From Butyricicoccus pullicaecorum (GTDB taxonomy: Bacteria > Bacillota > Clostridia > Oscillospirales > Butyricicoccaceae), in contig JAGZIW010000006.1 of the NCBI GenBank assembly GCA_018366035.1, forward strand, positions 126,847-190,846: a DNA stretch of 64,000 nt. The letters are read 5' to 3'. The translations under genes were made by a program, and so were the position numbers. How positions within the stretch are numbered: the first letter of the stretch is position 1; every line of letters starts with the position of its first letter. Under the pieces are notes generated by a model, which worked only from the letters and a program-made list of their open reading frames with translations, was not told the origin of the DNA and searched no databases. Of this stretch, positions 1,111-19,388 are shown piece by piece.

Positions 1111-1602
1111 TCACTCTGCACGTGAATCCGCGATTTGATTTGCACGTACCGTCGCATAAGCAGTTCCGCCTGTGACACTTTCAATTTTAATGCGGAATTG
1201 GCAGTTGGAACTGTCACTGCCTACATAAAATACCTCCTGCCGCTTTTCTCCTGGATTCATTTGCGGAGACATGGCAGAGACGATTTCTCCTTTTCCAATG
1301 TCATATAAATAGACATGGACAGGCTCTGAATCTTTTGGCACTTCACAGTACCAACGGAGATAGAAGCCCTCTCCCTTTTCCATAATAAATCTTGGGGTTT
1401 CATCTGTTCCGCGGCTGCCTGTATCCAAATTCCATTCCTGTAAAAGTGGATATGGCTGTGCTGGGGAAGATGCCAGAGCAGAAGCGTTGTCTGATTGGAT
1501 ATTTTGCGCTGTATCGACTGCATCAGCACGCATTACAGCGGCAGAGAGCAGCATGCAGCCCACAAACATAGCACTCAGGACTCTTTTTGCTTGATATTTC
1601 AT
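1111..1602 (-). CDS. Hypothetical secreted protein, about 163 aa.
   Basis: Internal Met start (MKYQAKRV..) followed by a signal peptide (…LLSAAVMRADA). There are no recognisable catalytic motifs. It lies downstream of repeat element B1. Confidence 0.55.
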   Translation of the reverse strand: MKYQAKRVLSAMFVGCMLLSAAVMRADAVDTAQNIQSDNASALASSPAQPYPLLQEWNLDTGSRGTDETPRFIMEKGEGFYLRWYCEVPKDSEPVHVYLYDIGKGEIVSAMSPQMNPGEKRQEVFYVGSDSSNCQFRIKIESVTGGTAYATVRANQIADSRAE

Positions 1603-1980: not shown

Positions 1981-2133
1981 ATATACATAATAGCATACAG
2001 ATGTACAATATACAATACCGCAGCAGAGAATGACCATATATAGCAGAGATTGGTAAAAATGATAGTACTACCATAGAGTAGAAAGCGTCTGTGGATATCA
2101 GCCTGTTTGTCGAGTTTCGGAAAACGGGTGAAA
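1981..2133. repeat. Repeat element A, copy 1, about 150 bp and homologous to 3466..3620.
   Basis: It shares a 42-nt identical block (GCAGAGAATGACCATATATAGCAGAGATTGGTAAAAATGATA) with A2, and the flanks are similar. Confidence 0.8.
1987..2015 (-). promoter_or_regulatory. Predicted sigma-A-type promoter in A1, minus strand.
   Basis: Minus strand reads TTGTAT -17 nt- TATTAT. This geometry is conserved with A2. The direct repeats TCTCTGC at 2023..2029 and 2043..2049 lie 7 nt upstream of the -35. Confidence 0.45.
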
Positions 2134-2138
2134 TGCAG

Positions 2139-2300
2139 CATACAATGCCATAGTATAAAAATAGACACACCAAAGCGACTCTGGTGTGTCTGAATATATT
2201 CCAAACCGGCAGAAAATAGAAAGAAAAGAAAAAGATATACACAAAGGATCTGCCGGAGTTGGACAATTTTGTATTTTTCTGTGTTTATTCAGTTTACCTT
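2139..2300. repeat. Repeat element B, copy 2.
   Basis: Homologous to 1664..1836. It lies immediately downstream on the minus strand of CDS 2342..3424. Confidence 0.8.
2152..2192 (-). terminator. Intrinsic terminator of gene 2342..3424, inside B2.
   Basis: Minus strand reads AGACACACC-(11 nt)-GGTGTGTCT followed by ATTTTTATA. Confidence 0.65.
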
Positions 2301-2341: not shown

Positions 2342-3424
2342 TCATAATTTCTCAAGCAATATGATACGCATAATATTAGAGTTGTCTGCTCGGAAACACT
2401 GTTCAGCGGCAGACAATCCGTTGGAATTGGAGAACATCATATTGCGGCAAGTGTCCTCGTCCTTGCCTTCGGCAATCGCTGTCAAAACGGCATCACAAGC
2501 AGTAATTGCTTGTTTTGCTTGTGCAATGGTTTCGTTGTAATAGTAATCCAAAACAGGTGTATCCGGCTTAGCAGTGTCCAGAACAGCCTGCATGGTTTTT
2601 TTACCAATTTCGGCACATTGCTTGATTTCGTCCTTGGTTGTTTGATTGTAATTTCGCTGCATCAGCAGAAAAATATTATTTTCCTTATCTGTTGAGCTAT
2701 TTGTACCTGTGACACTGGACGTATTTGCATCAGGTGTATATTGTTTTTGCAGATGTGCGGGAACATCACCACTCTGTGCAAGGTGTTCATAAGTAAATAA
2801 CTGTTCAATTGTGTCTATATAGGTGTTTCCAGCAGCGATTTGCGCGTCGGTCATGGCTGTGCGCAAGAAAATCATGGCTGGACCCTGTGTATCTTTTTCA
2901 CGGTAATTGATATCCATACCACATAACTCGCCGATATTGCGCACCGGAAGATAATTTGTGCTATTGTATTCAATGGGATAGATGACCTCACCGGCTGCAT
3001 TCTTAAAGGTCTGCACCTGATCATCTACGACAACCTTGATATCATCACGCAGTCTGGCAGTAATACCGTCTGTTGTCTCCTGAGAAGCGGTATCATCTTC
3101 TGGGTCGTAAGTGCCGGATTCTGCATGAATTAGCTTTTGTGTAGTACCGCTTAGTGTGATAGTTTTAGAGGACTCATTCCAAGAGACATTTTTTCCCATC
3201 CACTCACCAGCAGTACGAATCGGGATATAAGTGGTGCCATTATAGCTTAGAAAATCAATTTCTTTGCCATTTGCGTCCCAACAGTACGCTCGCCGTCCTT
3301 CGGTGTAGATACGTCCATTGATTGTATTTGCCTGAATATCAGATACAGCAAGTGCGTTCACACCACAGGACAGAATCGCTGCGGTCGTTGCGGTGAACAC
3401 CAATGTTTTCCAATATTTTTTCAT
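2342..3424 (-). CDS. Secreted protein with copper-amine-oxidase N-terminal-like repeats, about 360 aa.
   Basis: The RBS AAGAGGTG lies 7 nt before ATG(MKKYWK). A signal peptide is present. Two 'YIPIR/YLPVR'-type repeats (IDFLSYNGTTYIPIRTAGEWMG and VIYPIEYNSTNYLPVRNIGELCG) are typical of the Cu-amine-oxidase N-terminal domain common in clostridial cell-surface proteins. Confidence 0.7.
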   Translation of the reverse strand: MKKYWKTLVFTATTAAILSCGVNALAVSDIQANTINGRIYTEGRRAYCWDANGKEIDFLSYNGTTYIPIRTAGEWMGKNVSWNESSKTITLSGTTQKLIHAESGTYDPEDDTASQETTDGITARLRDDIKVVVDDQVQTFKNAAGEVIYPIEYNSTNYLPVRNIGELCGMDINYREKDTQGPAMIFLRTAMTDAQIAAGNTYIDTIEQLFTYEHLAQSGDVPAHLQKQYTPDANTSSVTGTNSSTDKENNIFLLMQRNYNQTTKDEIKQCAEIGKKTMQAVLDTAKPDTPVLDYYYNETIAQAKQAITACDAVLTAIAEGKDEDTCRNMMFSNSNGLSAAEQCFRADNSNIMRIILLEKL

Positions 3425-3465: not shown

Positions 3466-3620
3466 ATATGTATAGTAGCATGCAGATGTGTAATATACAA
3501 TATCACGGCAGAGAATGACCATATATAGCAGAGATTGGTAAAAATGATACATGACCATGAGATGGAAAGCCAGCTGTGGACAATCTGCACAGCATGCTTG
3601 TCTGGTTTAGGAAAGCTGGT
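3466..3620. repeat. Repeat element A, copy 2. It overlaps the last 4 codons of LytTR gene 3607..4332.
   Basis: Homologous to 1981..2133 with an identical 42-nt core block. Confidence 0.8.
3472..3500 (-). promoter_or_regulatory. Predicted promoter of gene 2342..3424 in A2, with upstream direct repeats.
   Basis: Minus strand reads TTGTAT -17 nt- TACTAT, about 40 nt upstream of the start codon. TCTCTGC repeats at 3508..3514 and 3528..3534 have a 20-bp period and lie 7 nt upstream of the -35. Confidence 0.5.
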
Positions 3621-4332
3621 GAAAACCTGTTTTTACAGACAGTTTCTGCTGAGCATTTTTTTGCAGATAGCTGAAAAATACAGCATGAAATTGTTTTCTG
3701 CGCATTCGGCTTATATTGATGTGGCTGCCGTTTATCATTTTGATGTCATCTTTCACAAAGTCTGAAATGTGATGCAGATTGATTAAGAAGCTTGCATGTA
3801 CCCGACAAAAATCATATTCTGCCAGCAGGGTTTCTACATTTTTTAATCTTGTGCGAATTGCATGTTGTCCATCAATTGTATGTGCTATCACAACGTAATT
3901 TTGACATTCAAAATATAAAATATCCTGCAAGGGCATACAAAAGGTTCTGCCATAATCATCGGTCAGAGTAATGGTTTTGCAGTTCGAAATCTGCAGCGCC
4001 TGTTGGAGCACCTCCTGAAATTTTTTCTCCTGTATCGGTTTTAGCAAATAGCGGAATGCAATACCGAATGCCTCTGCCGCACAGGTGCTTGTTTCACTCA
4101 CCAGAATAATGAGGGGCTTTTGCTTTCCCGTCATCAATATTTGGACTTGCTTCAAACGCTCTGAATGTTCTTCTTCAACATACAGGAAGATAAGCGGAAA
4201 GAACTCCTGTTTTGCACTTTCTATCAGACTTTCCATAGAATCAAAGCTGATATATGGGAGCGCTGCCGCATATTTTTGCAGCAGAGGCTCCATGCACTCA
4301 CAAATTTGAAAATCACAAATTGCTATTCTCAT
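3607..4332 (-). CDS. LytTR-family DNA-binding regulator with a degenerate N-terminal receiver domain.
   Basis: The C-terminal LytTR domain reads ITLTDDYGRTFCMPLQDILYFECQNYVVIAHTIDGQHAIR…FCRVHASFLINLHHI. The N-terminal receiver-like fold lacks the acidic pair and the phospho-acceptor Asp (FLYVEEEH sits at the expected position). Confidence 0.8.
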   Translation of the reverse strand: MRIAICDFQICECMEPLLQKYAAALPYISFDSMESLIESAKQEFFPLIFLYVEEEHSERLKQVQILMTGKQKPLIILVSETSTCAAEAFGIAFRYLLKPIQEKKFQEVLQQALQISNCKTITLTDDYGRTFCMPLQDILYFECQNYVVIAHTIDGQHAIRTRLKNVETLLAEYDFCRVHASFLINLHHISDFVKDDIKMINGSHINISRMRRKQFHAVFFSYLQKNAQQKLSVKTGFHQLS

Positions 4333-4487
4333 ACTTTAGCACCTATCCTGTCTCAGACCAAAGATCTTTTCAGTGTTTTTATGTCTGTTGTGTTTCAGTC
4401 CAACAAAAGCGAAACGTCTCTCATGATGAAAAGCAAGGGACACGCTCCTTGTTGGTTCAAAGTAATGATTTATTTAGTGGATAGGAT

Positions 4488-4754
4488 TTAGACATTGATC
4501 CAGTATGGGTCAACCCAACAGCCTTTCGTTTCATTCCAACGGCGATATTGCAACACACCGTCCGCATTCTGTCGATATTTATACACAATCTTATCTGCAT
4601 AGGGTGTTATATTAACATTAGATATCGTCATCAAAGATGTGGGCGTTACCGAAGTATTAATCTGTATGTTATGTAGTTCTGCTGCACTAGCTGCGCTTAT
4701 ACAAGCGCTTATGGATAGTAGAGTACCTAATGTACCGATAAATTTGAATTTCAT
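4488..4754 (-). CDS. Small secreted protein, 88 aa with a mature part of about 64 aa.
   Basis: A strong RBS GAGGAGGAG lies 8 nt before ATG(MKFKF). The signal peptide MKFKFIGTLGTLLSISACISAASAA is followed by ELHN. The gene abuts the stop of the blaR1-like gene, consistent with co-transcription. Confidence 0.55.
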   Translation of the reverse strand: MKFKFIGTLGTLLSISACISAASAAELHNIQINTSVTPTSLMTISNVNITPYADKIVYKYRQNADGVLQYRRWNETKGCWVDPYWINV

Positions 4755-4758
4755 TGTA

Positions 4759-5925
4759 TTACTCCTCCTCATATATTATTGGAAAGTCTGTATGTTTTTT
4801 GAAAAAATTGAAATTTTCTTCGGAGATTTGCTTAGAGTTTGTTCCTTCGATATGAATCCAATAAGTCCCATCTTTTTTGATTTCCATCTGAGTATTTGAT
4901 GGAGTCAAATCAATCGCATTCGGCTCAGTACTGGGCGGTGCTTCGTATACTGGCTGCGGGAGCAGAATATAGGATAGCGACAGCATGAGCACACAAACCA
5001 GCGTAACCAGAAAATGAGACAGCCTGTGCGTGTTTTTGGGGGGATAGTGCATGACCGCCTGAAAGCGCTCCTTGATATTTTTTGTGTCGTCAGAATGAAT
5101 AAATGCGGTTGCCGTATAGCAGGCTGGTTTGGACGGGGATATATTGCGCATCGCCATGACGATTGTGCGCAAATAAGCTGCTTTTTCCGGTTTCTTCATG
5201 TCACGAACCACGATGGTATCGCACTTGATTTCCAGCATTTGCTCTAAATCTTCCCTCAGCAAATATACAATGGGATTCCACCAGAAGATACAGCAAAATA
5301 TCGAAACTATAAATTTGATTAAGATATCGTGGTTTTGAAAGTGCGTATATTCGTGGAGCAGGATATAATACAGCTCCTCGTCGGTATACACATTTTTTGG
5401 AAGTAAAATTGCTTTGTGGAATAAACCAACACCAAAGGGGACTTCGATATTGGGCATTGTATAGAGGGAAACTTTTTGCGGCTTTGCAAACCTTCTCTGT
5501 ACCGATTCAAAGACCGTATATGCCTGTGTATGGCACATGCTGGCGTATTTTCGAATCTGTACACAGGCTTTGTGATAGCGGAAGAAATGCCGAATGAGCA
5601 GGAGAGTGGTAATTCCAGCCCAAAGTATGAGCAGAGCCTGTCCCACAGAAAGCGGAAAGCCAAATAACTCCATGAAATGTGTTTTCAAAAGGTTGCGGAG
5701 CGGCACATAGAACCACGCATATAGATATTTGTCGCCCAATACAATCACCTGCGCAATTTCCGCAGGAAAGAAGGCACGTGCCATACTCAGCAGATAGAGC
5801 ACAAGGATAGCCCAAAGACTAAATCCGCTTTTGACACAGTATAGCCTGCGAAGAACATACATGCCGCCAATTAAAAGTGTGCTCCAGAATATGGACGCCA
5901 AAAAAGAGCATAATGTTATCTGCAT
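4759..5925 (-). CDS. BlaR1/MecR1-family M56 zinc-metallopeptidase signal transducer lacking a penicillin-binding sensor domain.
   Basis: The HExxH motif LLHEYTHFQNHD is present with multiple N-terminal TM helices and a short C-terminal extracellular tail without SxxK/KTG motifs. The ATG(MQITL) start lies just after the blaI stop. Confidence 0.8.
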   Translation of the reverse strand: MQITLCSFLASIFWSTLLIGGMYVLRRLYCVKSGFSLWAILVLYLLSMARAFFPAEIAQVIVLGDKYLYAWFYVPLRNLLKTHFMELFGFPLSVGQALLILWAGITTLLLIRHFFRYHKACVQIRKYASMCHTQAYTVFESVQRRFAKPQKVSLYTMPNIEVPFGVGLFHKAILLPKNVYTDEELYYILLHEYTHFQNHDILIKFIVSIFCCIFWWNPIVYLLREDLEQMLEIKCDTIVVRDMKKPEKAAYLRTIVMAMRNISPSKPACYTATAFIHSDDTKNIKERFQAVMHYPPKNTHRLSHFLVTLVCVLMLSLSYILLPQPVYEAPPSTEPNAIDLTPSNTQMEIKKDGTYWIHIEGTNSKQISEENFNFFKKHTDFPIIYEEE

Positions 5926-5926
5926 A

Positions 5927-6355
5927 TCAATCTTTCTCCTGATCGGTTTCTTCAAAGATATCGATCATCTGTTCCAGTTCGTCAATCAGCTTTTCATATT
6001 TTGTGCGGTCGGTTTTCTTATCCTCTTTTTTTACAAGTGCCATGGCGATTTTTGCAAAGGAACTTGTGTTCACGCCTTGCTGTGCGAGCAGTTCAGCAAC
6101 ATATTCCTCCTTGCTCATGCAAGGCTTGAATTGTCTGGTATACCGCTTGCCCGACTTTACAAAGCCGCAGACCGCAAGGAATTCGGACTCCTCTAAAATG
6201 CCCAGCATTTTATGGATATAACTCATGCTCCAGTTTGCGGCTTCTGGATACTCTTTTGCCAGCGGCAGGATTTCCAAGCTGGTCAGCGGAACTCCCTGAT
6301 CCCAAAAAATATTGAGTAATGTTTCTTCGGAGTTGGATAGCTTCTTTTTATTCAT
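5927..6355 (-). CDS. blaI: BlaI/MecI/CopY-family transcriptional repressor.
   Basis: It is a 142-aa winged-helix repressor (…SNSEETLLNIFWDQGVPLTSLEIL…SYIHKMLGILEESEFL…) immediately upstream of the M56 peptidase gene. The RBS is AAAGGTGA. Confidence 0.8.
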   Translation of the reverse strand: MNKKKLSNSEETLLNIFWDQGVPLTSLEILPLAKEYPEAANWSMSYIHKMLGILEESEFLAVCGFVKSGKRYTRQFKPCMSKEEYVAELLAQQGVNTSSFAKIAMALVKKEDKKTDRTKYEKLIDELEQMIDIFEETDQEKD

Positions 6356-6414
6356 GGCAATCACCTTTCCTCACATATAATAACCATTTTGGTTTTTATA
6401 TATTTTATGGGGTT

Positions 6415-6443
6415 ATTATAATCAGATTTTGCTCAAAAGTCAA
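6415..6443 (-). promoter_or_regulatory. Consensus sigma-A promoter for the blaI operon.
   Basis: Minus strand reads TTGACT -17 nt- TATAAT, about 55 nt upstream of the blaI ATG. The inverted repeats TATAATAACC…GGTTATTATA in the leader are a candidate BlaI operator. Confidence 0.6.
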
Positions 6444-6461
6444 TATCATAATGGAATATAA

Positions 6462-6497
6462 AAAAAGCATTGATTCAAAAATCAATGCTTTTATCGT
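6462..6497 (-). terminator. Intrinsic terminator downstream of the GNAT gene (bidirectional hairpin).
   Basis: AAAAAAGCATTGATT-CAAAAA-TCAATGCTTTTAT, with A and T runs on both sides. Confidence 0.7.
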
Positions 6498-6508
6498 ATC
6501 TGTAAATT

Positions 6509-6790
6509 TTAGGATTCCTCCGCCAGCAGGTCTGCATGCTCAGGGTGCTGAGAAAACCATTTTTGTGCATAAGAGCAGGTGGGAATCGCTTTTTGACCCT
6601 TGCTGCGCAGCTCCTGTGTGAGTGCATCAATCAGCTTTCCAGCAACGCCTTGTCCTCTCAGCGAGGAGTCTACAACAGTGGAGGTGATTTCTATGGTGTC
6701 CTCAGTTCTGCTGGCAAATGCTACAAAGGCAATTTCTTCCCCGTTTTGATTTTCGAGCCAAATACGTCCTGTTTTCTTTTTGAAATCCAT
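6509..6790 (-). CDS. Small GNAT-family N-acetyltransferase.
   Basis: The 93-aa protein carries the acetyl-CoA binding motif RGQGVAGKLIDAL. Confidence 0.7.
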   Translation of the reverse strand: MDFKKKTGRIWLENQNGEEIAFVAFASRTEDTIEITSTVVDSSLRGQGVAGKLIDALTQELRSKGQKAIPTCSYAQKWFSQHPEHADLLAEES

Positions 6791-7742: not shown

Positions 7743-9323
7743 TCAATTTCCTGCCTGATAGATAACGGCTCCGTCTACAATGGTTGCCAATATCCGAATA
7801 TGCTCCAAGTCACGTTTGGGGATATCGAGGGGATTCTGCTCCAAGATGACAAAGTTTGCCTTTTTACCTTGCGCAAGACTGCCCTTGTCTGTTTCCTCGC
7901 CATACTGATAGGCTGCGTTCAAGGTGACCGCTTTTAAGGCGTCCATAACAGAAACTGCCTGATTCTGATCAAGCGGGATTCCGTTTCGGGTGACGCGGTT
8001 GACTGCACAGCTGATGGTTTTCATCATATCAGGCGGGAGAACAGGGCTGTCCTGATGAAACGTATAGTGCAGATTACATTCCAGCGCATCATGGACGGGA
8101 GAAATGCGGCGGCCGCGCTGCTCCCCGAAGTTTGCCAAATGGATATCACCCCAGTAATAAGTGTGTGCAACAAAAAAGCTTGGAATCATGGAAAGCTTTT
8201 CCATGCGCTGCAATTCTTTCTTTTGCACAAGCTGTGCATGAATCATAACAGGACGACAGGTATCTGTGACAGAATGATCACAAACAACCTTTTCAAATTG
8301 CGTTACAAATTGATCGGCAGCGGCGTCTCCGTTGCAATGTGCCAGCAGCTGTGCATGATCTGCCAGTGCCTGTTCAATGAAATGATACAGTTCGTTATCT
8401 GAATGAATCGGGTAGCCGCAATCGGTTGTTCCCGTATAGGGTTCTTTCACCCATGCGGTTTTTCCCTGCGGAGAGCCGTCCAAAAAGATTTTATAGCCGC
8501 CAAGACGGAAGTGGTTGTGATAGCTGTGCTCCTCTGCATGCTTCTGATAGATTTCACGGCAGTGCGCCAAATCCAGATAGCCAACAACATCGATTTTTAA
8601 CAGCTGTTCGTTGGAAAGCATTTTGAGCAGGGGGTACAGGGTATCGGATACCATACCGTCTTGAATTGTGGTAATGCCATATTGCGCATATATCCTTTGC
8701 GCTTCGACTACATTTTTTTTGAGCACTTCGATATCAAAAGAGGAAATGGATTTTTGAAATTCAATAAATGCGTTTTCTTCCATATAGCCATTGAGACGTC
8801 CTGTGTCTTTGAATCGACCAAAGCGGCCACCCTTCGGTGGTTGTACAGTGTCATCTAGCCCTTCCTTTTGCAAACCGTAAGAGTTGACAACGCCTATGTG
8901 ATTGGATATGTGGATAATCATAATCGGATAATCAGAACCAATCAGATCCAGAACATGACAATCAGGGTGTGCTTTTTCTTTTAAGAAATTTTGGTCGTAA
9001 TTGACGCCGATGACCCATTGTCCCTTGGGAATCTTCCGTTTGCGGATAAATTCCTGCATGGTGGAAACGATATCGTCAAAATCCCTTGCCTCGGATAAAT
9101 CGCACTGAGAAAGCGAATTTGCAAAGCCGATAAAATGGGAGTGTCCATCAATAAAGCCGGGCAAAAGGGTATTGCCCTGCAAATTGATTTTTTCACCCTG
9201 CCAGTCCTTGGGCGGTTCGGTATAAACAGCAAGGATACGATCCGCTTCCACCGCAATCGCTGCTGCCACTGGATTTTTTTCGTCCATCGTGAGAATGGTA
9301 CCGTTATAATATAATGTTTTCAC
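7743..9323 (-). CDS. Amidohydrolase-family (amidohydrolase 3-like) metal-dependent hydrolase.
   Basis: The 526-aa protein carries the N-terminal metal-binding motif GFIDGHSHF and a C-terminal amidohydrolase fold. Confidence 0.75.
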   Translation of the reverse strand: MKTLYYNGTILTMDEKNPVAAAIAVEADRILAVYTEPPKDWQGEKINLQGNTLLPGFIDGHSHFIGFANSLSQCDLSEARDFDDIVSTMQEFIRKRKIPKGQWVIGVNYDQNFLKEKAHPDCHVLDLIGSDYPIMIIHISNHIGVVNSYGLQKEGLDDTVQPPKGGRFGRFKDTGRLNGYMEENAFIEFQKSISSFDIEVLKKNVVEAQRIYAQYGITTIQDGMVSDTLYPLLKMLSNEQLLKIDVVGYLDLAHCREIYQKHAEEHSYHNHFRLGGYKIFLDGSPQGKTAWVKEPYTGTTDCGYPIHSDNELYHFIEQALADHAQLLAHCNGDAAADQFVTQFEKVVCDHSVTDTCRPVMIHAQLVQKKELQRMEKLSMIPSFFVAHTYYWGDIHLANFGEQRGRRISPVHDALECNLHYTFHQDSPVLPPDMMKTISCAVNRVTRNGIPLDQNQAVSVMDALKAVTLNAAYQYGEETDKGSLAQGKKANFVILEQNPLDIPKRDLEHIRILATIVDGAVIYQAGN

Positions 9324-9398
9324 ATGCGCTCCTCCTGTGCTGTTATCAGTATTTGTAGTTTGTGATTTATGCAGGCTTGTTCATACAACAATTTGCTC

Positions 9399-10316
9399 CT
9401 ATGTTATGGCATCTTTGGATTTTCTGGTATAGTTTGCTGCTATAATGCCGGCACTGACAAGACCCAATGCGCACCAGCTTTGGAATGTCCAGCTTCTCTC
9501 AGATAGAAAGACGGCGGACAGAATCGCGCCAAATACCGGAATGAGGAACCCGTATAGTGATACGGTGCCAACGGGCCACTTTTTCAGCAGCGTTGTCCAA
9601 ATGGTAAATGCGGCAGACGATAAAATGATAAGATAAAGCATCAGGAAGCAGCCCTTAATGGATAGCGTTCCAATCGAACCACCGCCGCCATAGCCCAGAG
9701 CAAGCAGGAAGATACCGCCCAGTGTGAGCTGCCAGCCGGTGAGAACCATGGGGTCCCGTCCGGCTGTCATCACACGGGACACCAAAGCGCCCATGCCGGC
9801 AGAAGCCGCTGACAGAAGTACCAGCCCATCACCCATGAGCGAGAAGCCCCCCAAATCTCCGCCCAGCTGCAAAAGCACGACACCGGAAAATCCCATGAGA
9901 CAGCCGATTGTCTTTGTCAGCGTCAGCTTATCATTTGCCAGAAAGATATGGGCAAACAGAATGGCAAAGAATGTCTGTGTGCCGGAAAGCAAAGCGCCCT
10001 TGGTTCCGGTTGTGTGGGACAAACCAATATAATAGCATACATATTGAATGATGCTTTGGAAAAGACAAATTGACAAAATGGCACCAATGTTGCTTCGATT
10101 GATGGGTATGTTACGCTTTCCGATAAGAAGCGCAATCATGAGTGTTAGAATTCCCGCCATTGTAAAGCGCCAGCCTGCAAACACCAGCTGTGAAAAGGAA
10201 TCCGAGCCGATTCCAAAGAGTGCGTAGCCGACCTTGATGCAGGGCACGGCGCTGCCCCACAATGCTGTGGTCAGGATTGCCGGTAATACCAATGTGAACA
10301 GTTTATGCTTTTGCAA
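9399..10316 (-). CDS. EamA/DMT-family transporter.
   Basis: The 305-aa protein has 10 predicted TM helices and two EamA-like halves. Confidence 0.75.
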   Translation of the reverse strand: MQKHKLFTLVLPAILTTALWGSAVPCIKVGYALFGIGSDSFSQLVFAGWRFTMAGILTLMIALLIGKRNIPINRSNIGAILSICLFQSIIQYVCYYIGLSHTTGTKGALLSGTQTFFAILFAHIFLANDKLTLTKTIGCLMGFSGVVLLQLGGDLGGFSLMGDGLVLLSAASAGMGALVSRVMTAGRDPMVLTGWQLTLGGIFLLALGYGGGGSIGTLSIKGCFLMLYLIILSSAAFTIWTTLLKKWPVGTVSLYGFLIPVFGAILSAVFLSERSWTFQSWCALGLVSAGIIAANYTRKSKDAIT

Positions 10317-10380
10317 ACCTTTTCCCCCTTATTCTGTCCTGCACAGCGTGCGTACAGGATACTATTTTCAGATCGGTATT

Positions 10381-10409
10381 ATAATAGCATGTTTTTCTGT
10401 TTTTGTAAA
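10381..10409 (-). promoter_or_regulatory. Predicted promoter of the DMT transporter gene.
   Basis: Minus strand reads TTTACA -17 nt- TATTAT. The perfect palindrome ATATGTCAcaaaTGACATAT at 10432..10451 lies about 25 bp upstream. Confidence 0.45.
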
Positions 10410-10556
10410 TCTATGGGCATTTATCTGAGAGATATGTCACAAATGACATATATTTTCATTGCAGATATAGATGCCCCCTGCAGCGCCAGCTATGCGATGC
10501 AGGGGGAGAAAATAGGGACTGAAAATATAAGATTAGCTGTCCGCAATGCAGCTGTG

Positions 10557-11900
10557 TCAAAGCGCCAGCATGACAGAGGAGTGAAACACATGCAGGTCGT
10601 GAGTGAACTCCACCCCTCCATCGTATTTGTCTGCAATCGCCTCGATATTACGCAGCCCCAAACCGCTGTGATTAGGTTTGCTGGAAATATATCGGCCACC
10701 AACTTTTTTTGTTTCCTCGTGAAAGCCATTGTCCACAGTAATTGCCAGCATTTGCCCGTAACAGAGCATGTGAAACTGTATGAATCGCTCGTCCGGCTCT
10801 CCGCGGCTGGCAGCGTAGATGGCGTTTTCCAGCAGATTGCCGAGGATCACAGAAAGGTCGATATCCGAAATGGAAAGCGTATCAGGAATCTGGATACGGG
10901 CGTCAAAGCGAATATCCTCTTGTATGGCGATAGTCTGATAGTATCCAACGACCATGTTGACTATGGGGTTGTGGCAGAGCTCGATTAACTCATCTTGCTG
11001 AACAGCACACAGATACTGTTCCAAATATTCGCTTGCTTCCTGTACTTGGCCACGCTGCAAGAAGCCTTGCAGCGTAATAATATGATGCCGCATATCGTGA
11101 CGCAGCCGGCGGCTGTTCTCGATGTTGGTACAAATGTGATGATACTGTTCCTTTTGAATGGAAAGCAGGTGGCGGGTCTGACTTGTATCGTGCTGAGAGC
11201 GCAGCTTTTCATAGGAGAGATATATCATTTTGAAGAAGATGAGATAAATCGTCAGAACCAGCGCAAACAGGGCAAAATACAGGAACAGAGACATTGGATT
11301 ATAGAGGTATTCATAGTCGATGAAAGACAGCCCCACGGTCAGCAGCAGAAAGAGAAACAAGGGAAGTCCCGATAGATAGGTACATTCCTTGGCTGTCAGC
11401 TCAGCTTCCATCGGGCAGTAGTACCGAATCAGAATCAATAGGAACAAGGGCAGAATCAGTGCGGTGCTCAAAGCCAGACTGATAATTGTCCAGCTGCGGT
11501 AGGGAAGCCCGTCATAACCAGTGGAGGGGAGCAGGCGGGTACAGATGACATTGTTGATAGAAGTGATTACCAGTCCGCAGGTAAGGACAAAGGAAAAAAT
11601 AAATAGTTTTTTCTGCCAGATTTCTCTGACCAAATACAGATACCAGATCAGGCAGGGAAACAGACACAGGATAAAGGCCACGTTGACTGCTTGAAACAGG
11701 GTGTGGTCAGGAGGAAACAGCTGCTGTAAAGTACAGCCACCGATTGCAAAAAGTATAGCAAGTGTCAGGATCAGCCAAAGAGTCAAGACTACAGAGCGCT
11801 TTGTGGACAAGCGAAGATGTTTGCGGTAGGGATAAAACGCAAGGACAGCAAAGGGAATAATTTGCAGCAAAAAGCCGGTAAACAGTCGGAGAAAGGTCAT
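10557..11900 (-). CDS. Membrane sensor histidine kinase of the AgrC/ComD/BlpH-like (HPK10, GHKL HATPase_c_5) type.
   Basis: The 447-aa protein has about 8-10 TM helices. It has the H-box RHDMRHHIITLQG and a C-terminal GHKL ATPase region (N-box LLENAIYA, G-box GLGLRNIEAIADKYDGG). Its cognate LytTR regulator lies immediately upstream. Confidence 0.8.
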   Translation of the reverse strand: MTFLRLFTGFLLQIIPFAVLAFYPYRKHLRLSTKRSVVLTLWLILTLAILFAIGGCTLQQLFPPDHTLFQAVNVAFILCLFPCLIWYLYLVREIWQKKLFIFSFVLTCGLVITSINNVICTRLLPSTGYDGLPYRSWTIISLALSTALILPLFLLILIRYYCPMEAELTAKECTYLSGLPLFLFLLLTVGLSFIDYEYLYNPMSLFLYFALFALVLTIYLIFFKMIYLSYEKLRSQHDTSQTRHLLSIQKEQYHHICTNIENSRRLRHDMRHHIITLQGFLQRGQVQEASEYLEQYLCAVQQDELIELCHNPIVNMVVGYYQTIAIQEDIRFDARIQIPDTLSISDIDLSVILGNLLENAIYAASRGEPDERFIQFHMLCYGQMLAITVDNGFHEETKKVGGRYISSKPNHSGLGLRNIEAIADKYDGGVEFTHDLHVFHSSVMLAL

Positions 11901-11905
11901 GGCAT

Positions 11906-12616
11906 TTACCTCCGTGTCAGGTCGAATAGGAATCGTTGGTACTGTGCTTTGAGTTCGGCACGATTGTTTCTGGAAAGAGAAATTTCGGTTCCATCTTTCA
12001 GAATCAGCTTGCTGGAGAGAAAGGAACGAATAAATTCCATATTCACCACAAAGCTGCGCTGAGGTCGCAGAAAACGGCAGCTGTCCAATTGTTCAAAGAG
12101 CGTATTTAGAGAAGTGTAGGTCTGAAACTGCTGTGTATTTGTATGAACGATACACAGCTTATTAAACACCTCGATATAGGTGATTCGTTTGGCTGGAATA
12201 GAAATGCTGCCTTGACTGCTATGAATGTGCAAAACAGGGTTGGCACTCTCTCCCAAACGGGTAAGACAGCGATCCATTGCTTCCCACACGGCGGACTGCT
12301 CTAAGGGTTTGAGCAGATAGTGCACTGCGCCCAGACCAAAGGCTTCAATGGCGTGCTCTCGACTAGTGGTGATGAATACGACCTGTGGATCTCCGCCCAG
12401 ATGCCGAATGACTTCTGTGCCCAGAAGCCCGTCTAGATAAATATCCATGAAGATGATTTGAAAGCTCTGTGACATATCTAAAAGCGCTTCTCCTCTGAAA
12501 AAGCGTGTAATGGCAAATTCCAGACCGTGTGTGGATTGGTATGCCCGAAGAAAGGCTTCCAGAATATCGAGTTGCTGCGGTTCATCATCGCACAGCGCGA
12601 TCTGCAAGAGGAACAC
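11906..12616 (-). CDS. LytTR-family response regulator (ComE/AgrA-like).
   Basis: The receiver domain has an acidic N-terminus (LCDDEP) and the phospho-acceptor in IIFMDIYLDG. The C-terminal LytTR domain reads …YIEVFNKLCIVHTNTQQF…FLRPQRSFVVNMEFI. Confidence 0.85.
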   Translation of the reverse strand: MFLLQIALCDDEPQQLDILEAFLRAYQSTHGLEFAITRFFRGEALLDMSQSFQIIFMDIYLDGLLGTEVIRHLGGDPQVVFITTSREHAIEAFGLGAVHYLLKPLEQSAVWEAMDRCLTRLGESANPVLHIHSSQGSISIPAKRITYIEVFNKLCIVHTNTQQFQTYTSLNTLFEQLDSCRFLRPQRSFVVNMEFIRSFLSSKLILKDGTEISLSRNNRAELKAQYQRFLFDLTRR

Positions 12617-12969
12617 TTCCTTTCCTTATGATTTAGTTTATCATAACAACAAATCTGTTTCAGCACAACAAGTTATTTCGTAAAAAGCAGATTTTTGGCG
12701 TGAACTGCACATCTATGATTGGGGCGAGTCATATATAATAAAGATAAACCAAAAAGGTGAATCAAATTTTAATTAAGAAAGAGGCAGATGTTCTCTGTAG
12801 GAAAGGAGAGCACCTGTATTAGAAATTGATTCCACAATAGAAAGTTCCTATATAGATTAAGGTGTGCAATCTATTGCAGGGGCGCAGCAGACCCGTAATT
12901 GCAATAATTCATATGAGTTTAAGCCATTTTTTGATGACAAACAAGGGGAAGTGAAGAGGGGAAAAGGTC

Positions 12970-14133
12970 ATGAGAGTGTTGCAAAAGATAGGTATATTAT
13001 GTCTGACAATGTTTATAATGGCGGTGCTGACTGCTTGTGAAGCAGGGAAGGATCCTCAAAAAACTGTCGAAAAAACGACTGTACGTATAGCAGTAATGGG
13101 AAATCCTGAAAATTTTTACGCTTCTTATATGGACGGTATAGAAGCAGCTGTTTCTGATGTCCAAAAGGAGTATGCAGATACCGAATATCTCTTTGATGTT
13201 GAGTTTTTCAACGATGAATCAAATTATGAAAAAGGCATGAAAATTGTTGACCAATTGATACACAATGATGATTTTATCGGTGTAATCGGTTCGAGAAATA
13301 TGGAAATTAGCAGTGGAACCGCACATATTTTCGATGAGTACGGAAAGGTTTTCGTTGCACCATATTATATGTATGACAGTGTGTGTGCGGATAACTATTA
13401 TGATTATGTTTTTTCCATGTGCAGTTCTGCTAAAAATACAGGAATCCTTTTAAGAAAAGCAGCAGAGCAGAGCAATGCTGAAAAATGGGCAGCATGCTTC
13501 ACTTCCCGTGAATTTGAGAGAGACGAACTGATTGGTTTTGTAAATTATCAAGGTTACAAAACCGAAGTCGTAGACTGCATATCCATAGAGGAATTGAGTA
13601 AGGATTTCGATGCAGTGTATGATAAATGGGAGCTGTTAGGGGTGGAAGGTGTTGCTTTCTTTGTAAAAGAATTGGAAGGACATAACATCTTGAAGAAGCT
13701 GAAAGCGAAAAATCCGAATCTGGTTTGCGCAGGCGATATCTTATTTGATGACAGCTTGATGATGGAGGAAGATGCAGCATTTGAAGCCGGAATGAAAGAC
13801 TTCATCATAGCAGACGCTTTCTATTTAGATGAGAATGACGAAAGTGAAAACCAGAAGGTTGATCAGATTGCACAAAGCTATCTTCGTGAAAAGGGTATTC
13901 AGATAGATTATTGGTATTTGCAGGGCTATAATGCAGTGCGTATGCTTTGCGATACTGTTGTAAAAAATAAAACGACAGATCCAAAGGTGATAGCTGAGGC
14001 TTTGCACGTTGATGGATATGACGGGCTTATGCAGATATTCCAGTTTGATATGCGCGGTGTTCAGACCAAGGTTCCTGATTATTATCAAATCTATACATCA
14101 GAGGGCACTTGGAAGAAATATATTGCACATTAG
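12970..14133 (+). CDS. Lipoprotein with a type-I periplasmic-binding-protein (Leu/Ile/Val- or amide-receptor-like) fold.
   Basis: Lipobox LTAC after the signal peptide. The two-lobed PBP-like sequence (IAVMGNPEN…IGVIGSRNM…) is present. It is the first gene of the exporter operon and no permease or ATPase partner is adjacent. Confidence 0.65.
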   Translation: MRVLQKIGILCLTMFIMAVLTACEAGKDPQKTVEKTTVRIAVMGNPENFYASYMDGIEAAVSDVQKEYADTEYLFDVEFFNDESNYEKGMKIVDQLIHNDDFIGVIGSRNMEISSGTAHIFDEYGKVFVAPYYMYDSVCADNYYDYVFSMCSSAKNTGILLRKAAEQSNAEKWAACFTSREFERDELIGFVNYQGYKTEVVDCISIEELSKDFDAVYDKWELLGVEGVAFFVKELEGHNILKKLKAKNPNLVCAGDILFDDSLMMEEDAAFEAGMKDFIIADAFYLDENDESENQKVDQIAQSYLREKGIQIDYWYLQGYNAVRMLCDTVVKNKTTDPKVIAEALHVDGYDGLMQIFQFDMRGVQTKVPDYYQIYTSEGTWKKYIAH

Positions 14134-14144
14134 GGGGATCGTTA

Positions 14145-15019
14145 TGGGATTGTTCAGAGAAAAAGCCATGCAAAGCAGCAGTACATTATCTGATGTCGGA
14201 AGGGGAATTGCAGGTATTCGTATTTCTGTATGGCTTTCGGTCATGGGTCTTGGAATTTGTGCTGCCGTTTTTATGATATGGCTGTTTTTCGGCACGATAT
14301 ATGAGACTGTTTCCGTTACTGGACTTGTATGGCCTTTGGAATCTGGAGGAACAGTATATGCGGAAACAACAGGTATTGTAACAGGACAAGTGATATATTC
14401 TGGTGCAGAGGTGAAAGCTGGAGATATTTTGGCGATTTTATACGATGATGAAGCACTCATGCAGCTCGATCTTGCCAAAACAGAAAATTCTTCTGCCTTT
14501 GCAGAATTACAAAAAAAGTACATTAGAAAAACGGTTGTTCGTTCTCATGTTGACGGTATCGTATCGCACATTGTAGATAAGGATACTCGTGTTGCCGAAG
14601 GTGAAGTAGTAGCAGAGGTCATTCCCTTTGATAAAGACGGAAATAATAAAAGAATTACCACATTTATTCCGGCTGATCGGTTAGATCAAATCGAAAATAA
14701 TATGGAGGTTCAGATTGTCCCCGAATTTGCGTCACGGGATAGGGACGGATATGTCTATGGTTATATATCGAGTGTTGGAAAATATCCAATAACCGGAGAA
14801 TATGTCAAGCAGTATTATGATTCTATATTTTCTTTGGGTATCGATATGCAGGAAAAGTATATCTGTGTGGAAATCACAATGGTTTCCGACGCAAACGCAA
14901 AAAGTGGATTAAAATGGTCCAATACAAAAAGTGAGGAAATTGATATAGGTCTGGGAACGCTCTGCCATTGCGATGTTGTCACCAATAAGCTGCAGCCATA
15001 CCAGTATTTGGTCAGGTAG
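14145..15019 (+). CDS. HlyD-family membrane-fusion/adaptor protein (bacteriocin-secretion accessory type).
   Basis: The RBS GGGGGA precedes ATG(MGLFRE). There is one N-terminal TM helix and a biotin-lipoyl-like hairpin (VIYSGAEVKAGDILAILYD). It is shorter than LcnD/ComB (291 aa). Confidence 0.7.
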
Positions 15020-15027
15020 GTGACAGT

Positions 15028-17166
15028 ATGAAAAAAGTGAAAAAGGTAAAACCAGTATTACAGATGGAGGTTACGGAATGTGGTGCAGCTTCACTTTGTA
15101 TGATACTGGATTATTATGGAAAATCAGTTGCGATGGAGCAGCTGCGTCTTGAGTGCGGGGTTTCCAGAAATGGCGTCAATGCAAAAAATATAGCAAGAGC
15201 CTCTATGCTGCATGGGCTCAAGCCACGCGCCTTAAAGGTGGGCGTACATGCAGCAAAGGAATTGAAATTTCCTGCCATCATTCACTGGAATATGGATCAC
15301 TTTGTGGTGCTTTGCGGATTCACAAAAAAAGGTGCTGTGATTGCAGATCCAGCGTCAGGGCTAAGATATGTACTGGAAGAAGAATTTTCCAAAAACTTTA
15401 CTGGGATTGCGCTGGAATTTACACCGAATGAAAGCTTTGAAAAAAATAGAACGCTGAAAAAGGATTATATCAAATCCTGTCTAAAATCGTTCGCACTCGT
15501 TCTGATTATATTTGTGGTTTGTGAGTTTTGCATGCTCATATCTGGCGGTGTTCTTCCTTTTCTAAACTCAGTATACATTAATAAAGTGCTTTTAGATGGT
15601 AAAATGCAGCAGCTTTCCTTTGCAACTGCGGTATTACTTATTTGTTTGTTGATTGCTTTTTTTGGTGGTGTGATAAGGGCATATACCATAAACAAAATTG
15701 TAAAACAGTTGAATGCGAAATTGAATTTTGGATTTTTTGAGCATATATTAAAATTTCCCATAGAATTTTTCTTGCAGAGAAATTCCGGAGAGCTGGCTAT
15801 GAGGCAGGGGGAAGTGATGAATACGGGAAGATGGATTGTGATGATGCTGCCGTTTATCTTCACATCAATGCTTCAGATTTTCATATATCTGACACTTTTG
15901 ATTTTTATGAATCTAAAAATTGCAATCATTGGTGCTGTTATGGTCGTAGTGAATGCAATAGCCGTGGTAATCGCTTCCAAGCGGTATCGGGAAAAGGTTA
16001 TGAGATCTGATCGGGAACGCGCCACGCTGCAAGGGCTTATTTCGCAAACTATAGACGCTGTGGAAACGATAAAATCCTGTGGCTGTGAAGATGCTGTTTT
16101 TGAAAGGCTGATTTCTGCCGGCAGTATCGCAATCAATGCAAGAACAGAGATCGAAAAGACCACAGTTCTCACCAATACAGTATTTACATTTTTGAACGCT
16201 TTTTCCTCAGCTTTGGTGATTGTGGCAGGTGTATGGGAAATCTTATTCAGTTCTTTGACGACAGGCTCCCTGATTGCGCTTCAGGGGGTTATGGCGGCAA
16301 TGCTGGCACCAATTGGAAACGCGATGAATATGGGATTTCAGATGCAGCAGCTCTCTGGTATGACACACAGAACAAATGATGTCATGCGCTATATGACAGA
16401 TACAAAGTTTGCCGAAGCTGAGCAGAAAGAGTTAACAGAGCTGGACAGTGACATAACATTTGAAAACATCACGTTCGGATATAGCCCTTTGGATACGCCA
16501 ATTTTAAAGGATTTTCATTTCCATATAAAAAAAGGAGGCAGTCTAGCCATAGTAGGCGGCAGTGGCAGTGGAAAATCTACTGTTGCAAAGCTGATTGCAG
16601 GATTGTTTTGTGAACAAAACGGTAAGATATTTTTTGGCAGCAGCGAAAGAAAGGAAATCGGACGAGATGACTTCTATTCGGAGGTTGCAGTCGTAACACA
16701 AAGTATCAGGCTTTTTGAGGGAACTGTGCTGGATAATATCACCATGTTTGACAATACCATTCCGTATGATGATGTTGTCGCTGCGGCAAAAATCGCTTGT
16801 ATTCATGAGGGGATTATTGCAAGACCTTCAGGTTATCGTGAGTGGGTGTCAGAAAATGGAAGAAATTTTTCAGGTGGGCAAAGACAGAGAATTGAAATTG
16901 CAAGAGCAATTGTGAAAAAGCCAAAACTGCTGATTATGGACGAGGCAACAAGCGCCTTAGATGCGGACACGGAAATGGATATTATGCAGGCAGTGTCTGA
17001 CATGGGAATCACAACGATTGTAGTAGCACACAGGCTTTCTGCAATAAGATATTGCGATAGTATCATTGTTATGAGAAATGGAGAGATTGCAGAACGTGGT
17101 ACGCACCATGAGCTTATGGCAATGGACGGAGAATATGCTGCGCTTCAGAGAGAAGGTGATATCTAG
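15028..17166 (+). CDS. Peptidase-C39 domain ABC transporter (bacteriocin/peptide-pheromone exporter, ComA/LagD-like).
   Basis: The N-terminal C39 domain has catalytic Cys18 (VTECGAASLCMILDYYG) and His (HFVVL). It also has a 6-TM permease domain and an NBD with Walker A GGSGSGKST, signature SGGQRQRIEIARA and Walker B LLIMDEAT. Confidence 0.9.
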   Translation: MKKVKKVKPVLQMEVTECGAASLCMILDYYGKSVAMEQLRLECGVSRNGVNAKNIARASMLHGLKPRALKVGVHAAKELKFPAIIHWNMDHFVVLCGFTKKGAVIADPASGLRYVLEEEFSKNFTGIALEFTPNESFEKNRTLKKDYIKSCLKSFALVLIIFVVCEFCMLISGGVLPFLNSVYINKVLLDGKMQQLSFATAVLLICLLIAFFGGVIRAYTINKIVKQLNAKLNFGFFEHILKFPIEFFLQRNSGELAMRQGEVMNTGRWIVMMLPFIFTSMLQIFIYLTLLIFMNLKIAIIGAVMVVVNAIAVVIASKRYREKVMRSDRERATLQGLISQTIDAVETIKSCGCEDAVFERLISAGSIAINARTEIEKTTVLTNTVFTFLNAFSSALVIVAGVWEILFSSLTTGSLIALQGVMAAMLAPIGNAMNMGFQMQQLSGMTHRTNDVMRYMTDTKFAEAEQKELTELDSDITFENITFGYSPLDTPILKDFHFHIKKGGSLAIVGGSGSGKSTVAKLIAGLFCEQNGKIFFGSSERKEIGRDDFYSEVAVVTQSIRLFEGTVLDNITMFDNTIPYDDVVAAAKIACIHEGIIARPSGYREWVSENGRNFSGGQRQRIEIARAIVKKPKLLIMDEATSALDADTEMDIMQAVSDMGITTIVVAHRLSAIRYCDSIIVMRNGEIAERGTHHELMAMDGEYAALQREGDI

Positions 17167-19280: not shown

Positions 19281-19388
19281 CAAAAATGAGAAAGAGGTGA
19301 AAAGATAACAAGGAAAGAACTCATATATTTGCGTGAAAAATCACGCAGCAGGTTGTTCAATGCAAAATGAATTAAGGAGGGGAAAAAC

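Follow-up and report, generated by a model that had tools for sequence, protein, structure and literature searches.

We analysed a 64,000-nt stretch of Butyricicoccus pullicaecorum DNA (assembly GCA_018366035.1, contig JAGZIW010000006.1, positions 126,847-190,846 of the forward strand), called the window here, and in it the minus-strand gene at 3607-4332, which encodes a LytTR-type regulator. Alignments indicate that the N-terminal domain of this protein is a pseudo-receiver, not phosphorylatable on Asp. The gene follows genes for a BlaI-like repressor, an M56 membrane metalloprotease and a small secreted protein, and two promoters with LytTR-type direct repeats lie immediately downstream of it. 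The most economical model, to which we give about an even chance, is that the regulator acts as a phosphorylation-independent activator whose abundance is controlled through BlaI/M56 derepression. The coordinates of all features are collected in Table 1.

Loss of the phospho-acceptor Asp

The open reading frame (ORF) is real, as the initial annotation had it: it runs from ATG to stop on the minus strand, encodes 241 aa, and contains a LytTR domain that was recognized with confidence (PF04397, 60.6 bits against a cut-off of 22.6, E 1.8e-16). The Pfam receiver family PF00072 (Response_reg) gave no match in the regulator at E<0.1, and over the N-terminal domain NCBIfam returned only BtsR/LytR equivalog alignments, below threshold. 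The database copies of the small Butyricicoccus clade to which the protein belongs (P0001-P0007) likewise showed PF04397 only; PF00072 was present in relatives at <=41% identity. An identical database copy, from a metagenome-assembled genome (MAG) labelled Butyricicocc*, is named by NCBI only as 'LytTR family ... DNA-binding domain-containing protein'. Because Pfam and NCBIfam were blind to the N-terminal domain, its residues were mapped through alignments with 25-54 homologues and with solved receivers.

In relatives at <=41% identity, the conserved blocks of the domain read MRIAICDDE ... FFPLIFLDIEM ... PLIIFVT ... YLVKP, and in the window regulator they read MRIAICDFQ ... FFPLIFLYVEE ... 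PLIILVS ... YLLKP. Since the Asp column is occupied by Tyr51, the phospho-acceptor of a canonical receiver is missing. A phmmer alignment to MrkE (2qv0) gave the same register, with Tyr51 in the Asp column, and in the family profile this column falls on the phospho-Asp of the solved LytR, MrkE and XynC receivers. Strand b3 of the predicted structure also ends at Tyr51. The initial annotation had put a Glu at the phospho-acceptor position. This was a two-residue misalignment: the residue in question, Glu53, is the native, ancestral Glu of the family 'DIEM' motif, two positions past the Asp (D+2). A caveat attached to that annotation, that a conventional Asp might have been misaligned, was half right, in that the register was wrong, but the residue in the correct column is still not Asp.

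The same annotation had read 'ICDF' in place of the acidic pair, and here the alignments agreed with it. After b1, D7 is kept and the second Asp of the family 'ICDD' is replaced by Phe8, so that neither a DD nor an ED pair, which binds Mg2+ in canonical receivers, is present. Ser79 (the Thr/Ser position) and Tyr95 (K-3), which make up the Y-T coupling pair, and Lys98-Pro99 are retained, and S79 and K98-P99 are invariant in the clade. Across the clade, the Asp-site residue is Y, Y, H, Y, G and G, position 8 is F, F, Y, K, H and H, and position 53 is E, A, E, D, E and E, with Ala in L001, L008 and P0002 and Asp in P0004. Two candidate substitutes for the Asp, a phosphomimetic Glu53 and a phosphorylatable Tyr51, were both rejected, because positions 51 and 53 are unconserved within the clade; judged by these alignments, neither residue is conserved enough to serve as a functional substitute.

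Receiver fold of the N-terminal domain

An AlphaFold2 model built from 54 homologues had a mean predicted local distance difference test score (pLDDT) of 90.2. Its secondary structure runs b1 (residues 3-6), a1 (8-21), b2 (27-30), a2 (33-42), b3 (47-51), a3 (57-66), b4 (74-79), b5 (94-97) and a5 (102-116), followed by the LytTR beta-domain. The top Foldseek match in the PDB was full-length ComE (4cbv, E 5e-13). Matches to receivers had TM-scores of 0.75-0.85, among them the receiver domains of MrkE (0.85) and Staphylococcus aureus LytR (0.82), and Thermotoga maritima CheY (0.79). The LytTR beta-fold matched AgrA LytTR structures with TM-scores of 0.82-0.84 and a root-mean-square deviation of 1.8 A, and 3d6w with a TM-score of 0.80. 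The receiver-fold pattern that had been noted from the sequence was thus borne out: the N-terminal ~118 residues are predicted to form a degenerate (beta-alpha)5 receiver fold. Its most likely role is in dimerisation and as a scaffold.

Relatives, origin and selection

Relatives came from a word-index search and from 1.84 billion representatives, which were searched exhaustively with HMMER. The Asp is kept in 188 of the ~199 nearest relatives, the exceptions being the Butyricicoccus clade and three singletons (E, G or N). A scan of GTDB (185,579 species genomes) found clade members in two B. pullicaecorum MAGs only, at 88% and 86% identity, which are too few for broad phylogenetic statistics; the remaining 51 matches were 25-31% identical, and all but one keep the Asp. 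Closest among the canonical relatives are P0010 and P0008 (~40% identity), whose agr-like loci encode AgrB, a 48-aa AgrD-like ORF, an HTH_3 protein, the response regulator and an AgrC-like HATPase_c_5 kinase. An AgrC-like kinase is encoded directly downstream of the response regulator gene in at least 30 canonical loci, and no kinase gene occupies that place in the window. By this comparison, the window protein is a derived AgrA-type regulator of a small Butyricicoccus clade in which the kinase and peptide genes were lost.

In two canonical sister loci (L003, 894-4130; L006, 166-3378), the HTH_3 (XRE-type) gene lies just upstream of the response regulator gene, this side is divergent from agrB and the 48-aa ORF, and LytTR boxes are found in the shared intergenic region.

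The pairwise ratio of nonsynonymous to synonymous substitution rates (dN/dS) within the clade was 0.17-0.31 over the pseudo-receiver, against 0.18-0.22 over the LytTR domain. Purifying selection acts on the pseudo-receiver; because its dN/dS is ~0.2, like that of the LytTR domain, it is maintained rather than decaying. The reading frame of the regulator is intact in six loci.

Signs of erosion were seen in other copies: the M56 gene is frameshifted in L001 (6368-7569), the regulator copy P0006 is frameshifted within the LytTR domain, and in L005 (93-659) a truncated M56 of 72 aa is left, and the small gene survives only as a remnant. Either genuine decay or errors in the assemblies could account for these signs.

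The upstream blaI/M56/small-protein module

The minus-strand gene order is blaI-like, M56, small secreted protein and LytTR regulator. The blaI stop codon lies 1 nt before the M56 ATG, and the small gene starts 4 nt past the M56 stop codon. This four-gene order was found in every clade member with enough flanking sequence (L001, L002, L004, L007 and L008), and synteny with the blaI/M56/small module extends across the clade at 60-100% identity. The M56 protein (398 aa) has a short C-terminal ectodomain and lacks a penicillin-binding sensor domain: the NCBIfam model blaR1_generic scored 95 bits against a cut-off of 400 and was matched only over positions 104-327 of 585. In the small protein, the N-terminal half is variable, and conservation is confined to the last ~30 residues, with the C-terminal motif QYRRWNETxxCWVDPYWI.

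Between strains whose flanking genes are 86-96% identical (window, L001, L002, L007 and L008), the small protein is 44-46% identical. Two allele types of it (MKFKFIG... and MKNKLLC...) travel with two types of the M56 C-terminal ectodomain tail (window 4759-4900), a pairing that looks like a pherotype-like ligand/receptor cassette, or merely a co-recombining block.

The predicted operon promoter is overlapped by an inverted repeat, ATAATAACC-N25-GGTTATTAT, which starts inside the -10 hexamer and spans the leader towards the ribosome-binding site. The element is invariant in L001, L007 and L008, and its exact 9-mer has no further occurrence in the 64 kb. On its sequence, we regard it as a candidate BlaI operator.

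The small gene and the regulator gene are separated by a conserved 155-nt gap (4333-4487). No promoter was predicted in this gap, which contains only a weak 5-bp hairpin; its RNA fold was not significant (z-score -1.67), and no convincing terminator or riboswitch-like structure was found there. The initial annotation had described the regulator as the last gene of the operon. The gene order agrees with this description, and we infer that the regulator is co-transcribed with the module.

Direct-repeat promoters and predicted targets

LytTR-box promoters had also been reported for this region, and direct-repeat promoters of the LytTR type are indeed present immediately downstream of the regulator gene. 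In promoter 1, DR1 AATCTCTGC (3536-3528) and DR2 ATTCTCTGC (3516-3508) are separated by an 11-bp spacer; beyond DR2 follow 7 bp, the -35 hexamer TTGTAT, 17 bp and the -10 hexamer TACTAT (3477-3472). Promoter 2 has DR1 at 2051-2043, DR2 at 2031-2023, the -35 hexamer TTGTAT and the -10 hexamer TATTAT (1992-1987). In published LytTR sites, 9-bp repeats are spaced by 11-13 bp and lie 4-11 bp ahead of the -35 (PMC6193735), and the window boxes (9-bp repeats, 11-bp spacer, 7 bp to the -35) fall within these ranges. Perfect direct repeats with a period of 20 occur nowhere in the window but in these two promoters. Scans of the whole 64 kb, with up to 3 mismatches to the box or for generic 10/11 repeats at periods of 19-22, found no box beyond these two copies, and none near the canonical response regulator/kinase or exporter genes described below. 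No direct repeats of the kind that positive autoregulation of the HdrRM/BrsRM type would need were found before the operon (6365-6520) or the regulator gene (4333-4487).

The boxes are conserved in L001, L007 and L008, as 2-3 tandem units; in L004 and L005 they have diverged (CAACTTTCTTCT, period 20) and keep the same -35/-10 frame. In the promoter region of agrB, canonical agr-like loci carry TCACTGC-N14-ACTCTGC or TTACTGC-N14-TCTCTGC, the second repeat of which lies 29-30 nt ahead of the -10 (TATAAT); thus, the box type belongs to this LytTR subfamily. From these features, 3508-3536 and 2023-2051 are candidate sites at which the regulator may bind, and it would activate rather than repress.

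Several features of the region around these promoters were also recorded. A ~170-nt segment is duplicated in the window at 1664-1831 and 2139-2300 (minus-strand reading; 83-97% identity), and each copy ends in a GC-rich hairpin and a T-run (AGACACACC...GGTGTGTCT). One copy terminates the gene of the 360-aa protein, and the other lies between promoter 2 and the gene of the 163-aa protein, whose transcript would therefore need to read through a terminator-like leader. An unannotated ORF of ~108 codons with no obvious ribosome-binding site lies between 1965 and 1638. L001 (8909-11439) has two paralogues of the Cu_amine_oxidN1 type, 42% and 94% identical to the window's, each with its own box. L007 (10723-12310) has ~1.6 kb extra between the regulator gene and the orthologous gene, and the region 3' of the regulator is strain-variable.

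Proposed mechanism and its occurrence in other lineages

In the model that we favour, the regulator gene would end a blaI-M56-small-protein operon under one strong sigma-70 promoter and its unique inverted repeat. The M56 protease would sense a signal, possibly involving the co-encoded variable secreted protein, and BlaI repression would be lost. The operon, including the regulator gene, would then be transcribed. The regulator, dimerised via its retained receiver-like domain, would bind the AATCTCTGC-11 bp-ATTCTCTGC repeats 7 bp upstream of a weak -35 and switch on the adjacent secreted-protein genes without phosphorylation. The lack of both the Asp and the second acidic residue suggests that its activity is independent of Asp phosphorylation; as no phosphoryl group would be accepted on Asp, its output would probably be set by the amount of regulator made. 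The combination of a pseudo-receiver, conserved blaI/M56 synteny and adjacent direct-repeat promoters makes this model the most economical.

When all fetched loci were scanned with hidden Markov models, only the clade and L052 had BlaI and M56 beside a LytTR gene. L052, a locus of a Lachnospiraceae MAG (8168-10960), encodes BlaI (E 7e-24), M56 (E 8e-27) and a LytTR regulator. The receiver of this regulator is still detected by Pfam, and its site reads FLNINME, with Asn. L151 (5111-7990), which encodes a 77% relative of this regulator, has the same BlaI-M56-LytTR order and also Asn. The LytTR and M56 proteins of L052 are ~25% identical to the window's, which indicates that the combination of BlaI, M56 and an Asp-less LytTR regulator was assembled independently. 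The broader family of L052 is mostly canonical (DD/D/T/K in 104/119), with an adjacent kinase in L147 and one orphan elsewhere. Altogether, BlaI-M56 adjacency was found in two of five Asp-less lineages versus none of the 54 Asp-containing loci examined (hypergeometric probability ~0.006, for a sample that is small and not independent). The other Asp-less LytTR lineages, P0192, P0146 and P0143, had no M56 gene beside them and had ABC-transporter or solute-binding genes instead. The suggestion in the initial annotation of phosphorylation-independent control via the M56 pathway is therefore favoured by the pseudo-receiver, the module synteny, the downstream boxes and the second lineage (L052/L151), but the link is not general.

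A more far-reaching version seems possible to us but rather doubtful. In it, M56, possibly reading the variable secreted protein as a self or pherotype signal, would remove BlaI, and the operon so released would yield a kinase-free LytTR activator that carries the response on to the direct-repeat promoters of secreted proteins; this hybrid pathway, not described before, would have been assembled independently in Butyricicoccus and Lachnospiraceae, with the Asp lost once the protease module had replaced the kinase.

The following observations weigh against the favoured model. The regulator and the boxes of L005 are intact although its M56 gene is truncated and its small gene degraded. The conserved 155-nt gap could hide a separate promoter or regulatory site, and the Pfam match of BlaI is modest (E 3.9e-7). 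In 80 metagenome loci of the window's M56 subfamily (35-46% identity), BlaI was always present and a LytTR gene never (0/80). In L052 and L151, direct repeats of the form T(A/G)GTCATTTC(G/A)TG (period 20-21) lie upstream of the regulator gene and of the next gene, which points to autoregulation of these Asp-less genes, not simple read-through. The canonical response regulator/kinase pair ~6 kb away could also use the boxes.

A small secreted protein gene follows M56 in ~27 of the 80 related gut-metagenome loci, and by this comparison BlaI-M56-small is a widespread self-contained module, with the regulator as a lineage-specific add-on.

Two further observations concern the Lachnospiraceae loci. 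In L052 and L151, the arrangement lies directly after spoIIAA-spoIIAB-sigF, and the regulator has 'LLKDD' in place of 'LLKP'. L150 (268-2674) encodes a Ser-site pseudo-receiver LytTR protein that is 69% identical to the L052 protein and has its own upstream direct repeats; the genes upstream of it encode a 138-aa multi-pass membrane protein and a 369-aa protein without a Pfam match, not BlaI/M56, an arrangement that recalls LytTR regulatory systems with membrane inhibitors.

Alternative explanations

The initial annotation had stated that no cognate kinase gene is adjacent. This is true of the immediate flanks, but an AgrC-like kinase and a canonical response regulator are encoded 6.2-8.3 kb upstream of the regulator on the same strand, next to C39-ABC exporters; this nearest kinase, 6.2 kb off, is paired with its own response regulator, and the pair is probably a separate system. 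With a minor but appreciable probability, the window regulator could instead be an unphosphorylatable paralogue that modulates this neighbouring quorum-sensing system. It would compete or heterodimerise with the canonical response regulator at shared repeats and act as a phosphorylation-independent brake or co-activator, like the LytTR-only or second-regulator proteins of bacteriocin loci. The short distance to the pair, whose neighbourhood is syntenic in L001, L007 and L008, would fit such a role, and so would the retention of the alpha4-beta5-alpha5 residues S79, Y95 and K98 in the pseudo-receiver; L052, too, has a second, canonical LytTR response regulator with a kinase fragment 3 kb downstream. 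However, the two window regulators are only ~24% identical, no TCTCTGC-type repeats occur near the response regulator/kinase operon or the exporter genes, and the boxes strictly adjoin the pseudo-receiver gene and resemble those of its canonical relatives L003 and L006. By analogy, control could also be post-translational, with M56 or another membrane partner either cleaving the regulator or keeping it inactive, and a signal releasing it; the pseudo-receiver would be its docking domain. LytTR regulators that are inhibited by membrane proteins have a precedent in HdrRM/BrsRM (PMC6193735), M56 adjacency occurs in two unrelated Asp-less lineages and in no Asp-containing relative, and the pseudo-receiver surface is under purifying selection. 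We nevertheless consider this reading unlikely: the operon itself encodes BlaI, a substrate of the type known for M56 proteases, which is enough to account for the signalling, the 80 related BlaI-M56 modules have no LytTR gene, and the L005 regulator survives the truncation of M56.

It is improbable that the gene is a decaying orphan, the remnant of a lost agr-like system that drifts towards a pseudogene and has no regulatory role. The loss and variability of the catalytic residues, the absence of the cognate kinase and agrBD from the locus, the frameshifted or truncated copies and neighbours (P0006 and the M56 genes of L001 and L005) and the tiny size of the clade (2 GTDB species matches) are what decay would produce, but dN/dS is ~0.2 in both domains across the clade, the frame is intact in six loci, the structure model is confident, and conserved, cognate-looking promoters adjoin the gene. 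The possibility raised by the initial annotation, that a built-in phosphomimetic Glu locks the receiver in an active state, is very improbable. Residues 53-55 are three Glu in a row just past b3, and Glu in place of Asp can activate some regulators, as in the NtrC D54E work cited in PMC4395418; the Asp column, however, is Tyr51 and varies as Y/H/G, and Glu53 is also found in the 'DIEM' of Asp-keeping relatives and is variable (E/A/D) in the clade itself.

Comparison with known systems

Pseudo-receivers make up several percent of receiver domains. Regulators with pseudo-receivers or aspartate-less receivers (ALR), such as RitR, are a known and common class (PMC4395418, PMC12632262), and the window regulator belongs to it; its wiring is unusual and possibly novel. 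As the reviews describe for this class, it has a receiver fold without the Asp, changed acidic residues, and a retained Thr/Ser-Tyr/Phe coupling pair and Lys, and it is presumably phosphorylation-independent. Unlike the described members, it has a LytTR output domain, an unconserved Tyr/His/Gly at the site and a gene in a BlaI/M56 operon. The main texts of the two reviews mention no LytTR example. Our literature search found no paper combining 'LytTR' with 'pseudo-receiver' and none linking LytTR regulators to BlaR1/M56; 'LytTR' and 'BlaR1' occurred together in only two papers, both of them unrelated genome reports.

Response regulators of the AgrA/ComE/BlpR type share with the window regulator the layout of a receiver fold and a LytTR domain, full-length ComE being the best structural match, and target-type promoters in which two 9-bp direct repeats, spaced by about two turns of the helix, precede a weak -35; the genes of its nearest canonical relatives (40%) belong to agrB/agrD-like/AgrC-like loci. 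In contrast to them, the window regulator has Tyr51 for the phospho-acceptor Asp, the pair D7-F8 and a receiver invisible to Pfam, and its locus has no adjacent kinase, AgrB or peptide gene. HdrRM and BrsRM of Streptococcus mutans (PMC6193735) are kinase-independent LytTR activators beside a membrane protein, as the window regulator would be, and control secreted or bacteriocin-type products through 9-bp direct repeats that are spaced by 11-13 bp and lie a few bp ahead of the -35. Regulators of the HdrR/BrsR type have no receiver-like domain, whereas the window regulator has one; their partner is a small transmembrane inhibitor, whereas the window's are BlaI (PF03965), M56 (PF05569) and a secreted 88-aa protein; and their own operon promoter bears repeats, which are absent before the window operon or gene. 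The window regulator is not an HdrRM-type LytTR regulatory system. With BlaI/BlaR1 (MecI/MecR1), the module shares a Penicillinase_R gene translationally coupled, in one operon, to that of an M56 HExxH protease, and a strong promoter overlapped by an inverted repeat. It differs in the lack of a penicillin-binding sensor domain on its M56 protein, in the absence of a beta-lactamase or PBP2a gene, and in two additions, a small secreted protein that is variable and a LytTR activator. The module is not a beta-lactam sensor.

How bacterial pseudo-receivers are switched on and off 'remain[s] a mystery', in the words of one passage of a 2025 review (PMC12632262). The window locus offers a compact, testable case that can be compared with a canonical sister family (agr-like, 40% identity): the input module, the Asp-less regulator and the predicted target promoters all lie within 5.5 kb. 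If the model is true, it shows a quorum-sensing regulator rewired to a protease-based sensor in Butyricicoccus, a gut butyrate producer, with predicted controlled genes that encode secreted proteins. If the cascade is wrong, the protein is just another orphan atypical response regulator.

Feature coordinates and the neighbouring two-component locus

Table 1. Features in the window, in window coordinates, with the strand and the basis of each assignment.
Feature	Position	Strand	Basis
Pseudo-receiver + LytTR regulator gene	3607..4332	-	ATG-to-stop ORF, 241 aa; LytTR Pfam match; AlphaFold2; Foldseek
Pseudo-receiver domain, residues 1-118	3979..4332	-	Alignments, codon check, PDB profile alignment; no PF00072
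LytTR DNA-binding domain, residues 129-217	3682..3948	-	PF04397 E 1.8e-16; AgrA LytTR structures, TM-score 0.82-0.84
Tyr51 codon (TAT), phospho-acceptor column	4180..4182	-	Homologue, MrkE and PDB-profile alignments; codon check
Glu53 codon	4174-4176	-	
Terminator after GNAT gene, preceding operon promoter	6492-6463	-	
Operon promoter TTGACT-17-TATAAT	6443..6415	-	Promoter scan, 11/12
Inverted repeat ATAATAACC-N25-GGTTATTAT, candidate BlaI operator	6419..6377	-	
BlaI-like (Penicillinase_R) repressor	5927..6355	-	PF03965 E 3.9e-7, 30.9 bits vs cut-off 22.6; probable ATG 6355
M56 (BlaR1-type) membrane metalloprotease	4759..5925	-	PF05569 E 1.4e-30; HEYTH; probable ATG 5925, ORF to 5955
Small secreted protein, 88 aa from ATG 4754 (or ORF to 4772)	4488..4754	-	Signal peptide
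LytTR-type promoter 1	3472..3536	-	Upstream of 360-aa secreted protein gene
LytTR-type promoter 2	1987..2051	-	86% identical copy of promoter 1
Predicted target 1: secreted 360-aa protein, Cu_amine_oxidN1-type domain	2342..3424	-	Terminator 2191..2163 after it
Predicted target 2: secreted 163-aa protein (MKYQAKRVLS...)	1111..1601	-	Syntenic in L001 and L007
Canonical LytTR response regulator, DD/D/T/K	11906-12616	-	Pfam, site table
AgrC-like kinase	10557-11900	-	Pfam

In the region 10557-27431 of the window, the canonical response regulator/kinase pair lies beside genes for a periplasmic-binding protein, an HlyD-like protein and two ABC exporters, one of which carries a C39 peptidase domain, and beside a 2680-aa ORF (19389-27431). 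This region looks like a quorum-sensing/bacteriocin-type or large-exoprotein export locus.

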